Source: Fidelibacterota bacterium
Lineage (GTDB): Bacteria > Fidelibacterota > Marinisomatia > Marinisomatales > JABMOV01
Assembly (NCBI GenBank): GCA_046861395.1
Contig: JBHHUC010000065.1
Location: 1-10,467 of the forward strand
DNA length: 10,467 bases
Direction: 5' to 3'
Made by a program: the position numbers. Shown one piece after another: positions 6,001 to 10,467 of the stretch (positions are counted from its first letter, which is position 1; each line of letters opens with the position of its first letter).

Positions 6001-9000
6001 TGGACCCACCAGGGCTATATTCCAGGGGATGAAAAAAAACTGGAAACGATAATCCTGGGACTGTTGGGTGATGAATAACCGGATTTTATATTTTATAGTC
6101 TGCTGTATCACCCTTTCCTTTCTGTCGGCACAAGTAACCGTTTCCGGCAGTGCCAATATTCGTTACGGGGAAGATAAGACCGGGTTCATTTATTCGGAGA
6201 AATTTTTTGACACTCAAATGCAGATCGGACCCTTGACTACCTGGTTTCAATGGGAATTCAGTAATCCTCCCGAAGTGGGGTTGCCCCATGCCGGTCTGCG
6301 AAAATTCCGGTTTGAGTATGAATCGGACCGGACCATGATAAAATACGGTGATCTCTATGAATTCTGGGGCCGGGGCCTGGTCCTGAATCAATTTGAAAAT
6401 CAGCAGATTGATATCGATAATTCCGTGACCGGGCTTTTCTTGTCCTCGCATCTGAAGGAACGCTGGGTCCTGGATATCATTTCAGGGCAGGGGAAGCTAT
6501 GGTATCAGGATGAACGGGTGAATAATCCGCCATATGATGAAAGACGACCCAATTACCGCCGGGAACACAGAGTCATCGGTTCTCGTCTGCATTATCAGGG
6601 GGACCGGTTCGATATGGGAGCAACCTATCTCCAGTCCAGGGAACGCCATCCCTACCCATCCGGAACTCCATTGGGTTCGGAAATGGATACACTGGCCCTG
6701 AAGCATCGATTAAATAGCCTATATGCCAACCTATACCTGCCATTCATGGATGTATCCCTGGAATATGCCGAAACACGCACGGCTGAGTTCATCCCGGACA
6801 GGGTGGCATTATTTCCCCGGGGTCGGGGTCAGTCCTTTTACGGGAGTGTCAATGCCTACCTGCCCCTTTTGACCGTATTTTTTGATTATAAGCGGTATGG
6901 TTTCGACTCGCGCATTCCCGATGAAGGTTCACCGGCCTATTATTATACCGGAGCCCTGGGTTTTCAAAGCCCGCCCATTGTTATCAAGGAACATACTTCC
7001 CAATTGTTGAACCGGATAACACACGTGACGGATATTGACAATGAAGTAGGTTACCAGGTCGAGATATCAGGACCCATTACCTCTGATCTGGTGGCCAATC
7101 TGAATTTCAGCCGTGCCAGCATGATCAATCGTTGGCAGCAGGAACGGCTGCAACCCTTTGGCTGGGAATGGAAGAAGAACGGGTCCGCCATATTTTGGCC
7201 GGTTCAGGATAAATCCGCCAAACCGTTTGGTGAAATTTATGCCGAAATAGAAGGGTATATTTCCGATCCCGTGCATGTGAAAATGGGCGCAGCGTATACC
7301 GAAGATATTCCGGAATTCATCGGCTATTCTATCACGGATACTACACGGGACCTGAATTATGTGACGCTCAAGGCCCACACCTACCCTCTGGCACTGGATA
7401 TTTCCTTTGCCGATCATTGGAACCTGGAAGTGAAATATGAACGCCAGATTCTGGAAAAAATGCGACGGTCGTCGGTTTCTATTCTTATGCCTGATACCAT
7501 TCAGTTGATTGATAACAGCTTTTCTTTGTTTGAAAACGGGGGGGCTCAAGATGGCTGGATTCTGAGTTTAGGGATCGGGCGGTCACCACAATGGTCGTTG
7601 AATATTCTCATCGATGCCATATCGACTCGGGAATTCGGAACCTATGAAGATTTCCAATTTGAAAATCCGATGGAAAAAATATTTGCCCGATTCATGGAAA
7701 TAGAGAATAAATGGATTTCGCTGGAATTTAGCGTGAATTTAACGGAAAGAACTCGGTTCCAGGTCGCCTATGGATCGCTGCAGGGCGGTATTGTGTGTAC
7801 AAACGGAATCTGTCGTTTCATCGAACCATTCAACGACGGTTTTCAACTGTCACTTGTATCTCTGTTTTAATCAACTGATTACTTGTGAAATATTTTCCGT
7901 TGCTGTAATTTGTCTGAGAAATTGGGGAACATTATGAAAAAAACACTTTTGGCCGGTATCCTATTGGCAGGCGTGATTACGGCCCAGACCTATAATGTGG
8001 GTGACGTGGTGGCCAATTTTTCCGAAGCTATTTGCGCCAACGGAACAGGAGACTGGGTTCTGGATAATTATAATGGTGATCTCAATGGCGGTGATTACCA
8101 TGTGATTTGGATTAACCTGTTCACATCTTGGTGACCAAGCTGTCAATCGGAGGCTCCGATTACAGAAGGAATTTATCAGACTTATGCCGATCAGGGTTTA
8201 GTCATGGTGGCGGCCGGATTCGACTGGAATCAACCGTACAGTTGCGAAAGCTGGGCTCAAACTTTTGGTTTAAGTTATCCCATTACCGACGATGAATCCA
8301 ATCTGGTCTGGAATATGTTCGGTCAGGGGTATATTCCGCACAATGTTATTCTGGATCACAATTTTGAAGTATTGTACTCCGAAGCCGGATTCAGCCAGGG
8401 AACCATCATTGCGACGATTGAAGCGGCCCTTGCCAATCTGCCGGCAGATTTGGATGGGGACGGTATCCTCAATGATCTGGATAATTGTCCGGAAATCTAC
8501 AATCCTGATCAGGCCGATTTGGACAACGATGATATCGGTGACCTGTGTGATCCCTGTGATAATGCGAATGTCTTTGTCGCCGGGAATGTAACCGGGGATG
8601 TAACGGATGACGGGCCGGTTCTGGATGTTTTTGATGTCCTGACGCTGGTCGATCTGATCCTGGATAATGATTTCCCCGGCTGTACGGGAGAATCAGCCAA
8701 TTTCAACGGCGATAATTTTATTAATGTGCTGGATGTCGTTCAATTGGCCCAATACGTTACCGGTCTATATGGTCGCTATGCCCCCGTGGAACTATCCCAG
8801 GCGACGGTCACCATTGCCCGGGATGAAACTAAATCATCGCTTCTTATTGAGAGTCAAACAGGCATAGCAGGGTTCCAATTGGAAGTCAAAGGTCAGGAAC
8901 CAGCGTTTAACGGAATTTCCGATGCGAATCTTCCGGAGACCTGGATTCTTGATTACCGACAGGATGAAAATTCGCTTCAGATCCTGGGCGTGGATTTGAG

Positions 9001-10467
9001 TATGACGCAATTGACTCAATCCATTACGATTGGGATTTCCGGGGCCGAATCTGTTGGTCAAATCATCATCAGCGACCGGAATGGTAATGAAATTCCCGTT
9101 ACGATTAATACATCGGCGAACGGGCGACCCATTGAACTCCCGGCAGACGTTCGCTTGAATGAATTGTATCCCAATCCTTTTAATCCGGTAGTTTCGGTTC
9201 CTTTTTCCCTGCCGTTCCAAACGGATGTTACCATAGCCGTTTATAATCTGAATGGGCAGTTGGTGGATATCCTCCTTCAAGCCCAGGATATGGTAAGTGG
9301 TTTTCATGAAGTCCGGTGGGATGCCTCACGCCAGGCATCGGGAGTGTATATTGTTCAGATACAGACCCAACAGGGAATTGACACACAAAAGGCTTACCTC
9401 TTGAAATAAGAAAGGTTTAGCTCTGAAAAAAAGCCCGGAATTTCCGGGCTTTTTTTTATTATTGTCCAGCCGGCGACAGCATGAGGCTCCAACAGTCGGT
9501 AATTTCTGTAAAACGGAATGATGAGAATGATAAGAAACCTGATCGGATTAATCCTTTTCTTCGGTGTCATGAGTGGGCAACCATACGTGGTCGGGGACGT
9601 TGTGGCGGATTTTCAGCAAACAATTTGTGAAAACGGCAATGGATCCTGGTCGCTTTATAACAGTACGGGGTTTGACGGTAACAGCAGCGGCCGCATTACA
9701 CTACTCATTTTTTTTGCTTCTTGGTGAATTACCTGTCAATCGGAGGCTCCGATTTTGGAAGGAATGCAACAACAATATGGCAATCAGGGGTTACAGGTTA
9801 TATCGTTGGGATCACAATGGAATCAGCCATATTCCTGTACATCCTGGGCCACGACGTTTGGTCTCACTTTTCCGATCCTGGACGATGATTCCTATTCGGT
9901 AGGCAGTCTTTTCAGCGTCAACGGTGTTCCGTTTACCGTTATCATCGATCATACCATGGTTTTACGTTACCGAGCTCTGGGCTTTAACCAAAGTGTCGTG
10001 GTGGCTACCATTGAAGATTTGTTGACCGAATTGGATGTATCCGAATCTGCGAGCGTGTTGTCTGAGAATTTCTCTCTCCGTCCAGCCTACCCCAATCCAT
10101 TTAATGCCAGTGTGACCATTCCCTTTACATTAACCCGGGAGGAGGATATGAGCGTCACCGTTCATGACATAACCGGTCGGGTCGTTGCCACTCTGGCGAA
10201 GGGGATGATGCCGGCCGGGGAACATGTCATACGGTGGTCACCTGTGGTGAGATCCACCGGTATTTACTTTATTTCCGTGGCATCCGGGACCCAGCATCTG
10301 GTATATAAGATAGTTCAGGTAAAATAAATTCCGATCATAGGGAGGGAATCCCGGTAAAAGAATTGTAAGCCTATGCCGGAACAAGTTAAATTCGCCGCGC
10401 TTTTTGAACAGTAATATGCGCCCGTGGCTTAATTGGATAGAGCACCTGGCTACGGACCAGGGGATTG

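Follow-up and report, generated by a model that had tools for sequence, protein, structure and literature searches.

Two neighboring genes on the forward strand of the window (the whole stretch of DNA analyzed here, 10,467 nucleotides), together with a paralogue on another contig of the same genome (C65:3013-5001), probably encode exported thiol-disulfide oxidoreductases of the TlpA/ResA/DsbE type, in which the attacking residue is predicted to be selenocysteine (W-U-x-x-C). A preliminary description had read these genes as selenocysteine (Sec) redoxins addressed to the type IX secretion system (T9SS), and this reading is supported by every in silico test, that is, by the Sec/Cys homologue pairs, a covarying hairpin specific to the Sec forms, the Sec machinery, the signal peptides, the sorting domains over their cut-offs, and the components of the T9SS. 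The gene structure, the Sec/Cys pairs, the hairpin, the domains, and both machineries were observed here. Given this pair of neighboring Sec redoxin genes with a T9SS tag, some of the selenium enzymes of the Marinimicrobia/Fidelibacterota, a common marine phylum, are probably located extracellularly. To our knowledge, those bacterial selenoproteins that have been studied reside in the cytoplasm or the periplasm.

Reading frames, domains, and fold

Under translation table 11, the frame of gene A is interrupted by a TGA at 8132-8134, and that of gene B by a TGA at 9725-9727. When the single in-frame TGA of each gene is read as U, A becomes a protein of 491 amino acids (7934..9409, forward strand, as are all the features below), and B a protein of 269 amino acids (9518..10327), both ending at a TAA stop. 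The earlier claim that the called pairs g00007+g00008 and g00009+g00010 represent single proteins is borne out by the presence, in both, of a redoxin domain and a Por_Secre_tail domain over the gathering score, and the same holds for the third gene (FTGWUPVCAPEF), in which AhpC-TSA scores 83.7 bits and Por_Secre_tail 29.7 bits, and which also contains LVIVD repeats and an Ig-like domain. The layout common to A and B consists of a signal peptide, a TlpA/ResA-like redoxin with W-U-x-x-C, and a T9SS type-A sorting domain.

Gene A, the long form, was delineated by the read-through translation, Pfam, NCBIfam, and an AF2 model, and includes a TSP3/dockerin-like stalk and a beta-sandwich between the redoxin and the sorting domain. 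Its signal peptide, recognized by inspection of the translation, is MKKTLLAGILLAGVITA, followed by Q (7934..7984). The thioredoxin-fold domain of the TlpA/ResA/DsbE type covers amino acids 22-167 (7997..8434; Pfam, and VIA Z 18.7 to DsbE 3gl3), and contains the predicted Sec codon (8132..8134; U67, in W-U-P-S-C). The thrombospondin-type-3 repeat and dockerin-like helical module (amino acids 170-275; 8441..8758) are indicated by the helices of the model, by Pfam scores slightly under the cut-off (TSP_3, 24.2 bits; Dockerin_1, 15.8 bits), and by a match of 116 bits to positions 260-375 of NF045500. The beta-sandwich (amino acids 290-394; 8801..9115), to which no family was assigned, is seen in the strands of the AF2 model (block pLDDT 64-91). 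A hairpin resembling an intrinsic terminator, followed by a T run, lies between the two genes (9424..9458). Gene B, the short form, was read from its read-through translation and an AF2 model (pLDDT 91.6), and proceeds from the signal peptide and the redoxin to the sorting domain, with its predicted Sec codon (9725..9727; U70) in W-U-I-T-C (FASWUITCQSEAP).

The models combine a Trx fold and a beta-sandwich, with U-x-x-C at the start of helix 1 (in the model of B, helix 71-90 begins right after U70). The best structural matches are ResA, CcmG, DsbE, and Trx-like proteins that are secreted or lie at the cell surface (TM by target 0.8-0.88, Z up to 18.7), and the Pfam family Redoxin is found in A at 32.3 bits (gathering score 26.6), alongside AhpC-TSA at 30.8 bits. 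The fold and the W-C-x-x-C type of site are shared with ResA (TM 0.84-0.86), CcmG (DsbE; Z 18.7 for 3gl3), and TlpA, proteins which differ from A and B in being membrane-anchored or periplasmic and Cys-using, and whose clients are apocytochrome c and copper chaperones. Structural neighbors at Z 14.5-15.3 include the streptococcal surface thioredoxin lipoproteins Etrx2 (4hqz) and SdbA (5um7), and the secreted Mycobacterium tuberculosis DsbE (1lu4), Trx-fold enzymes that act outside the cytoplasmic membrane, although in Gram-positive or mycobacterial envelopes, lipid-anchored or Sec-secreted, and with Cys.

The scores of A and B are far under the NCBIfam cut-offs for the ResA equivalog (NF002854; 47 and 45.7 bits against 170) and the DsbE equivalog (TIGR00385; 21.3 and 40.5 bits against 123). 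The ResA-like WAxxUGC selenoprotein (NF041054) is matched at 17.3 and 33.2 bits against 300, the motif in A and B being SWUxxC. Gene A is not a member of the Omp28-related selenoproteins (NF045500), because its 116-122 bits, over model positions 259-375 only, are below the cut-off of 200. The peroxidatic motif of the peroxiredoxins (AhpC/Prx/Bcp) is P-x3-T/S-x2-C, whereas the sites of A (L-F-T-S-W-U-P-S-C) and B (F-F-A-S-W-U-I-T-C) have neither Pro at -7 nor Thr/Ser at -3.

The predicted selenocysteine and the downstream hairpin

Comparison with homologous sequences indicates that the TGA of A and B is a selenocysteine codon and not a stop, and Sec insertion is predicted at both UGAs. In the alignment, natural Cys homologues have the first Cys of their CxxC at the positions of U67 and U70 (the invariant column C70), and among them are full-length forms that also bear the sorting domain (e.g., P0004, P0024, and P0031). 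The database homologues had been described as cut short by gene callers, which is not true of all of them, given that several of the 79 matches are full-length Cys forms, with P0004 covering 99% of the query. Several other entries show W at the Sec position, where a code-4 gene call has probably read the TGA as Trp.

The redoxin family was matched in 129 of the 301 Marinimicrobia/Fidelibacterota genomes. Among the 123 phylum matches with E <= 1.7e-17, this genome being left out, 77 hold one in-frame TGA, 43 none, one has two TGAs, one a TAG, and one a TGA plus a TAG; this sample is larger than the earlier one. Every relative that was read through has its TGA at the first active-site position. 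The Sec/Cys state switched at least eight times on the family tree, which makes this family useful for the study of Sec-Cys exchange. The tRNA-Sec (C78:136-229), SelA, SelB, and SelD reported in the preliminary description were all found in the genome, the SelB gene being truncated where its contig ends, and that of SelD having one TGA of its own. SelA is present in 59 of the 62 genomes with the one-TGA form, among the matches listed, and no TGA form occurs in two SelA-poor families (f3, with SelA in 1 of 30, and f26, with 0 of 33).

The SECIS-like hairpin AAUCGGA-GGC-UCCGAUU, with 7 bp and the loop GGC, begins 11 nt past the UGA in both A (8145..8161) and B (9738..9754), the same 17 nucleotides in each, in agreement with the stem-loop noted previously after the two UGAs; in A, four more base pairs lengthen the helix over 8140-8165. 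It provides a covarying 7-bp helix directly 3' of the UGA, within the codons for C-Q-S-E-A-P-I. Like the bacterial SECIS of the fdhF type, it lies directly past the UGA and within the coding sequence, with a G opening the apical loop (G21 and G22, counted from the U of the UGA), but it is very short, with its 7 bp and 3-nt loop.

In a comparison of 59 Sec forms with 22 Cys forms, 79.6% of the cells of the Sec-form helix were paired, against 62.6% after shuffling (0 of 500 shuffles as high), and the mean folding energy of the 42 nt downstream was -9.9 kcal/mol in the Sec forms against -4.8 in the Cys forms, although these shuffle and Mann-Whitney statistics are inflated by the relatedness of the sequences. 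The covariation score was 0.398 against 0.146, both sides change in six of the seven pairs, and slid controls of the helix gave 27-51% pairing. The hairpin is absent from the 22 Cys forms, in which the pairing of 42.9% equals the shuffle mean. Codon choice differs as well, with NCG at +5 in 45 of the 59 Sec forms, while 50 of 51 Sec forms use GAG for the Glu six codons past the UGA (+6), where 16 of 18 Cys forms use GAA. The single-sequence folding z-scores of this small element are only -0.97 and -0.61, and some 9 of the 58 distinct Sec sequences are without the hairpin in this register, with other hairpins visible by eye farther downstream. An Rfam search of the hairpin matched no family.

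Predicted type IX export and the alternative readings

The sorting domains of A (amino acids 411-491; 9164..9406) and B (amino acids 191-269; 10088..10324), the latter a 7-strand beta-sandwich in the AF2 model, score 43.7 and 40.1 bits with TIGR04183 (cut-off 23), and 42.7 and 36.6 bits with PF18962, Por_Secre_tail (cut-off 27). The tag has a PNPFN motif and a K-x-x-L-x-K ending, and resembles about 50 other sorting domains of this genome, in which the domain was found in 59 frames. The Sec signal peptide of T9SS cargo was recognized in the translations of both proteins, and the N-termini of the family present a hydrophobic region, a small residue, and Q in 53 of 71 cases (crude regular expression). 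The genome also contains PorU (618 bits), SprA (574 bits), and PorV (six matches over the cut-off); the GldM model found no match in this genome, nor in the control genomes, which makes this search uninformative. Together, these features point to the secretion of A and B by the T9SS. Por_Secre_tail reaches at least 27 bits in 36 of the 57 Sec read-throughs of relatives, and in 11 of the 22 Cys forms. Eight Sec forms have a dockerin-like module at the C-terminus and no sorting domain, six others are under the Pfam cut-off, three are without Por_Secre_tail among the matches listed, and five run off their locus, one of them among the six under the cut-off.

In the proposed explanation, SelB and Sec-tRNA would read the UGA during translation because the hairpin (core CGGA-GGC-UCCG, with covarying flanks) lies 11-13 nt downstream. 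Guided by its signal peptide, the protein would pass the Sec translocon in the unfolded state, and cleavage by signal peptidase I would leave an N-terminal Gln. Folding would follow in the periplasm, where the two other near-invariant cysteines would probably form a structural disulfide. The type-A sorting domain would then hand it over to the T9SS (PorV, SprA), with PorU removing the tag, and the predicted final location would be the cell surface or the medium. There, the putative substrates are disulfides, which the selenolate-thiol pair may reduce or exchange, or alternatively peroxide, and the selenium would make the enzyme highly reactive and hard to over-oxidize irreversibly. We know of no reductant beyond the outer membrane, which leaves the catalytic cycle unexplained and counts against this explanation.

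Selenol peroxidases are well known, and A and B may be true Sec enzymes and T9SS cargo that act as thiol peroxidases and not as disulfide reductases or isomerases, with peroxide oxidizing the selenol, and external thiols or sulfide recycling it. AhpC-TSA is indeed the top Pfam family of B (50 bits; gathering score 26), Bcp and peroxiredoxin structures match the fold at Z 13-16, and the family was filed as 'Prx-like' in the supplementary list of a 2008 study. This reading is nevertheless unlikely, given that the active site resembles that of thioredoxin, TlpA, and ResA, and not the peroxiredoxin motif, and that ResA, DsbE, CcmG, and TlpA lead both the fold matches and those to NCBIfam.

It is somewhat less likely still that these selenoproteins remain in the periplasm, with the C-terminal beta-sandwich serving as a passive Ig-like domain or anchor, and not for export. 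The fold relatives ResA, CcmG, and TlpA are extracytoplasmic, cell-bound, and fed by CcdA/DsbD, and two DsbD_TM matches occur in this genome; FlgD_ig also weakly matches the C-terminal region, eight Sec forms have no tag, and one Cys homologue (L077) is lipoprotein-like. Against this stand the tag itself, over both curated cut-offs and like so many others of this genome, its motif and ending, the presence of PorU, SprA, and PorV, and the precedent of HBP35, a protein of this kind exported by the T9SS. A TGA that does not encode Sec, whether it separates two genes, marks a pseudogene, or represents a Trp, Gly, or Cys codon, is highly improbable. The gene callers did split A and B, some database entries have W at the site, and in one relative (L027), two TGAs stand next to each other and the frame is short. 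However, exactly one TGA is kept in most of the strong phylum matches, and the downstream piece alone would have no signal peptide and only half of the fold. This genome also uses TGA as an ordinary stop, at the end of 415 of 1063 long ORFs, the hairpin is confined to the TGA forms, and these forms go with SelA. Secretion of a selenocysteine oxidoreductase is the preferred reading.

Known relatives and the neighboring cassette

The suspicion that the redoxin family was already a known type of selenoprotein was justified, since it is listed among the predicted selenoproteins of the 2008 GOS survey as 'Prx-like 1' and 'Prx-like 3' (PMC2398784, supplementary file 3). The reads given there (FTSWUPSCTTEAPQAEAV..., FTSWUPSCQVEAPQTE...) belong to this same family, have its N-terminus and its two additional Cys, and go on into the TSP3/dockerin-like region, and some are nearly identical to the loci L028, L033, and L058. 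They differ in being read-length fragments, none of which was seen to reach a sorting domain in that file. The main text of that paper contains neither 'signal peptide' nor 'periplasm', the T9SS is not considered in its available parts, and the family is named peroxiredoxin-like.

A parallel for the export is HBP35 of Porphyromonas gingivalis, a surface protein with a thioredoxin-like motif and a T9SS C-terminal domain, which the sources available describe as moved to the surface by Por/T9SS, with its tag removed, and as having thioredoxin activity in vitro (PMC2907840, PMC3120885). The likeness is drawn from the domain make-up, and HBP35 differs in having Cys instead of Sec, in binding hemin, and in belonging to the Bacteroidota. 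The Omp28-related selenoprotein (NF045500), a curated NCBIfam model, corresponds to 'Hypothetical protein GOS_C', of which a read with the FTGxxUPYCPSA motif appears in supplementary file 4 of PMC2398784. It shares the phylum, the U-x-x-C site, and the stalk with A, and differs in its Omp28-like head domain; a search of this genome found no true member. Four of the six members examined also carry the same T9SS sorting domain, and at least two head-domain families have one export stalk in common.

Given this, the earlier statement that surface-displayed bacterial selenoproteins were undescribed is too broad, because HBP35 (with Cys), a TonB-dependent-receptor selenoprotein predicted previously, and NF045500 exist. 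The part that stands concerns the sorting domain of selenoproteins, since a search of the literature on selenoproteins, the T9SS, and the sorting domain found no paper joining them. The new element, as far as this search goes, is the sorting domain on selenoproteins, which the Omp28-related/GOS_C family carries as well.

If the preferred reading is correct, a globally common marine phylum exports selenium enzymes past the outer membrane, as a new class of T9SS cargo dependent on the Sec-insertion machinery, and microbial selenium demand would be tied to cell-surface chemistry. It would also offer a natural setting in which to test whether selenium is favored when a catalytic thiol has to withstand oxidizing surroundings. 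In public data these genes are mis-annotated, some being entered as 'T9SS sorting domain' proteins in truncated form, others having W in place of Sec, and such entries could be corrected by means of the hairpin together with the Sec/Cys pairs.

Three genes lie upstream of A. These are an exported protein with no assigned function (4232..5575), which is conserved and is the first gene of the cassette in G230; a Cys-type TlpA/ResA-like redoxin with a signal peptide and WATWCEPC (5590..6078), part of the conserved cassette; and a DUF6029 outer-membrane beta-barrel candidate (6068..7870). It is conceivable, if doubtful, that the Sec redoxins represent the outermost part of an envelope-spanning thiol-disulfide relay encoded by this cassette, which holds the exported protein, the Cys redoxin of the periplasm, the barrel, and at least one putatively T9SS-exported Sec redoxin. 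Reducing power from CcdA/DsbD would pass to the periplasmic redoxin, then through or onto the barrel, and finally to the surface selenoenzyme, and the cell might in this way reduce external disulfides, for example, for the uptake of reduced sulfur or the degradation of proteins. In 28 of 69 loci, the gene directly upstream is a DUF6029 homologue, the four-gene order is kept in G230, L039, and L058-60, and a redoxin is fused to DUF6029 in a 59-member Atlas cluster. The barrel has an invariant C-x4-C near its C-terminus (C576 and C581), which, judging by barrel topology, may lie in the last external loop.

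Reading frames, domains and fold of the redoxin genes

Genes A (7934–9409) and B (9518–10327), both on the forward strand, are each broken under the standard bacterial code by a TGA, located at 8132–8134 in gene A and 9725–9727 in gene B, beyond which the same frame is open to 9409 and 10327, respectively. When this codon is read as selenocysteine (U), gene A encodes 491 aa, with U67 in the site [13 protein letters not shown], and gene B encodes 269 aa, with U70 in the site FASWUITCQSEAP. Both products have a typical N-terminal signal peptide, followed by Gln, and both score above the Pfam gathering threshold for Redoxin/AhpC-TSA and for Por_Secre_tail, while the T9SS type-A sorting domain (TIGR04183, cut-off 23) reaches 43.7 bits in gene A and 40.1 bits in gene B. 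Only gene A contains, between head and tag, a thrombospondin-type-3/dockerin-like stretch and a beta-sandwich (aa 290–394). A strong terminator-like hairpin (9424–9458) lies between the two genes. On another contig of the same genome, the gene at C65:3013-5001 combines LVIVD repeats and an Ig-like domain with a redoxin domain (FTGWUPVCAPEF) and a sorting domain. The read-through and the domain matches thus confirm, for all three genes, the proposal of the preliminary description that these TGA-split genes are single proteins with a redoxin and a sorting domain.

In the structure models (pLDDT 91.6 for B and 75.1 for A), U lies where helix 1 of a thioredoxin fold begins, and seven strands form a sandwich apart from this fold. 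The best structural matches of the models are DsbE, ResA, CcmG, and TlpA-like proteins, together with thioredoxin-like proteins of Gram-positives and mycobacteria that are secreted or located at the surface (TM by target 0.8–0.88; Z up to 18.7). The main functional rival is that A and B act as peroxidases. Their active site is W-U-x-x-C, however, which differs from the peroxiredoxin motif, and the two products are therefore read as putative thiol-disulfide oxidoreductases. Outside the active site, two cysteines (C37 and C107 by the numbering of B) hardly vary, and a structural disulfide may link them.

The in-frame TGA as a predicted selenocysteine codon

Four independent lines of in silico evidence, that is, the cysteine homologues, an RNA element, the selenocysteine machinery, and the co-occurrence with SelA, support the reading of the TGA in the redoxin genes as selenocysteine. 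In the natural homologues P0004, P0024, P0027, P0030, and P0031, which are full length and retain the sorting domain, Cys is found exactly at the U position, and the active-site codon of the 81 family members collected from relatives is TGA in 59 cases and TGT/TGC in 22. The genome contains tRNA-Sec, SelA, SelB, and SelD, all four as previously listed, and SelD itself has a TGA. SelA is present in 59 of the 62 genomes with a one-TGA form, and the three genomes in which it was not found are 77–88% complete; no TGA form is found in two SelA-poor families, with SelA in 1/30 and 0/33 of their genomes. A general recoding of TGA in this genome was rejected, since TGA is the terminal codon of 415 of the 1063 long ORFs.

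The RNA element is a hairpin of 7 bp, with the loop GGC, which begins 11 nt after the UGA, in agreement with the stem-loop start reported at 11–14 nt in genes A and B. Over C-Q-S/A-E-A-P, the Sec forms keep to the codons NCG GAG GCU CCG, and the Glu codon is GAG in 50/51 of these forms, whereas it is GAA in 16/18 Cys forms. In 59 Sec sequences, 79.6% of the cells are paired, in comparison with 62.6% after shuffling (0/500 shuffles as high) and 27–51% in the slid controls, although these statistics are overstated because the sequences are related. Six of the seven pairs vary on both sides, from C-G to U-A or G-C, for example, while the same columns of 22 Cys sequences are 42.9% paired, which is no better than in their shuffles. 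This comparative test alone is decisive; the z-scores of single-sequence folding were not significant. Approximately nine Sec sequences fall outside this register and, as judged by eye, have other hairpins further downstream, and no Rfam family matches at the UGA site of either A or B.

The public entries of the redoxin family vary in how they represent this site. P0007, P0013, P0015, P0019, and P0021 have W in place of Sec (WW..C), which most likely reflects a gene call under code 4, with the TGA read as Trp, and other entries are truncated to the portion that follows the TGA. The claim that database homologues cover only this portion or the sorting domain holds for the truncated entries, but not for the W entries or the full-length Cys homologues, such as P0004 and P0024. 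Among the relatives, one locus (L027, G244:C8:21046-21510) reads FATWUUPC: a second TGA directly follows the first, at a place where others have U-G, and the frame, of 202 aa, has no sorting domain. This locus may be a pseudogene or have a double-Sec site. Another locus (L064, G012:C18:28363-28866), a strong family match that was missed by the motif scan, has an in-frame TAG in place of the TGA.

A query with the N-terminal domain of B found matches in 129 of 301 phylum genomes (E <= 1e-10), and the family records bear the names Marinimicrobia, Neomarinimicrobiota, and Fidelibacterota. A scan in which each species was represented by a single genome, based on a narrower alignment and two search patterns, one of which cannot match TGA, so that the scan favors Cys forms, returned named relatives of at least 38% identity (E 1e-29 or better) exclusively under these three names, together with one further short match (L136, 44 residues, 64% identical); the other phyla yielded only generic redoxins, with 25–39% identity. 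The broad family alignment contained no conserved stretch. Three architectures recur in the family: a short form like gene B, a long form with a stalk like gene A, and the LVIVD propeller plus redoxin of the C65 gene. When the trait column is masked, a quick tree implies at least eight changes between Sec and Cys, at least five of them forced by well-supported branches.

Sorting domain and gene neighborhood

The sorting domain of A and B passes both curated models and has the usual ending, K-x-x-L-x-K, and the two tails resemble dozens of others in the genome (53 matches in one search, and 59 frames with a custom tail HMM). The genome also encodes PorU (618 bits), SprA (574 bits), and PorV-family barrels; the GldM model TIGR03517 had no match here or in any control genome, and for this reason says nothing on GldM. 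The proposal that the Sec redoxins are addressed to the type IX secretion system is thus supported in silico, and their export is predicted from these sequences. Within this genome, a sorting domain coincides with a credible internal TGA in only the three redoxins. Among 57 Sec read-throughs of relatives, Por_Secre_tail reaches at least 27 bits in 36, and falls below the cut-off in six; three do not have it among the five matches listed, eight have a dockerin-like module at the end and no tag, and five run off their locus, including one of the six below the cut-off. A 201-aa Cys homologue (L077, G019:C118), which lacks a sorting domain and whose signal is lipoprotein-like (FICGC), represents a differently anchored variant.

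Upstream of gene A are found the overlapping, tandem glutamate-tRNA ligase (817–2544) and glutamine-tRNA ligase (2534–4228), an exported 447-aa protein with only weak FlgO/CsgG/LpoB-like leads in the Atlas, a Cys-type TlpA-like redoxin with a signal peptide (5590–6078), and DUF6029 (6068–7870, forward strand), a predicted outer-membrane barrel. In 28 of 69 loci, the gene immediately upstream of the redoxin encodes a DUF6029 homologue, and genome G230, where a glutamate-tRNA ligase also precedes the cassette, has the same gene order, with the redoxin in the Cys form. The Atlas describes DUF6029 as a TonB-receptor-like barrel, and contains a cluster of 59 proteins (Krumholzibacteriota) in which a redoxin domain is fused to DUF6029. 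The DUF6029 protein of the window (alignment A5) ends in SLF, and has an invariant C-x4-C near the C-terminus (C576 and C581, in GGxxCxNGxCRxxEPFxDGF). Together, the adjacency, the order in G230, the Atlas fusion, and the invariant cysteines suggest that the redoxins and the barrel may work together. In G230, DUF6029 was paired for complex prediction with the redoxin domain of the neighboring Cys form (alignments A6 and A7), and the score was 0.00, which means no answer. A PDB sequence search with DUF6029 returned no match.

In three other loci (L058, L059, and L060, in G250:C37, G262:C1, and G193:C61), 3–5 paralogous Sec and Cys redoxins surround a single TlpA-like and a single DUF6029 gene, and several of the paralogues end in a dockerin-like module in place of the sorting domain. 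At the edges of the window, the reverse strand carries two tRNA-Ser genes (359–446, anticodon tga, and 457–547, anticodon gga) and an ORF of 99 aa (104–403) that encodes a GIY-YIG nuclease domain (E 9e-16) and overlaps the end of the first of these tRNA genes, while a possible tRNA start on the forward strand (10418–10467; 26 bits, below the Rfam cut-off) is cut by the contig end.

Relation to known selenoproteins

The redoxin family was correctly described as a known type of selenoprotein, given that reads belonging to it are entered as '#Prx-like 1' and '#Prx-like 3' in the available part of the GOS selenoproteome's supplementary file 3 (2008; PMC2398784), where WUPSC occurs 19 times. A TonB-dependent receptor has also been predicted as a selenoprotein of the outer membrane. 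The architecture has a cysteine precedent in HBP35 of P. gingivalis which, according to the available portions of PMC2907840 and PMC3120885, combines a thioredoxin-like motif with a C-terminal domain, reaches the surface through the Por system, and shows thioredoxin activity, whereas A and B are predicted to carry selenocysteine. No paper joining selenoproteins to the T9SS or its sorting domain was found in a search largely without subscription journals and without bioRxiv supplements, nor was any relevant paper on selenoproteins or selenocysteine in the Marinimicrobia. The text of a 2026 review of prokaryotic selenoproteomes (PMC13188914) does not contain 'secret', 'periplasm', 'signal peptide', or 'Marinimicrobia', and neither 'T9SS' nor 'secret' occurs in BSepDB or deep-Sep. 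The novelty claimed for T9SS-exported selenoproteins therefore stands with regard to the link between the two systems, but not to the selenoprotein family or the Cys architecture, as far as these partial sources indicate. The co-occurrence of a Sec codon, a redoxin domain, and a sorting domain in one frame is confirmed, while Sec insertion and export are predictions supported in silico. The sequencing runs listed, which may come from the source sample, were of DNA only, with none of RNA. The genes, as read, can be described as members of a known predicted selenoprotein family with a predicted T9SS address or, equally, as the Sec version of a T9SS-exported thioredoxin-like protein.

The 'Hypothetical protein GOS_C' of the available GOS material (PMC2398784), with FTGLNUPYCPAASFA, corresponds to the NCBIfam 'Omp28-related selenoprotein', true members of which are found in 6 of 151 phylum genomes. 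In this family (site FTGxxUPYCPSA), four of the six members examined have the stalk of gene A and a sorting domain at 38–44 bits, and one, which shares the taxonomic family of the window, has almost the same tail as gene A. Omp28-related loci were recorded in G131, G047, G119, and G075 (L092–L095), and in G137 six copies exceed the cut-off, of which four are consecutive (G137:C52:3507-11981) beside a Sec redoxin.
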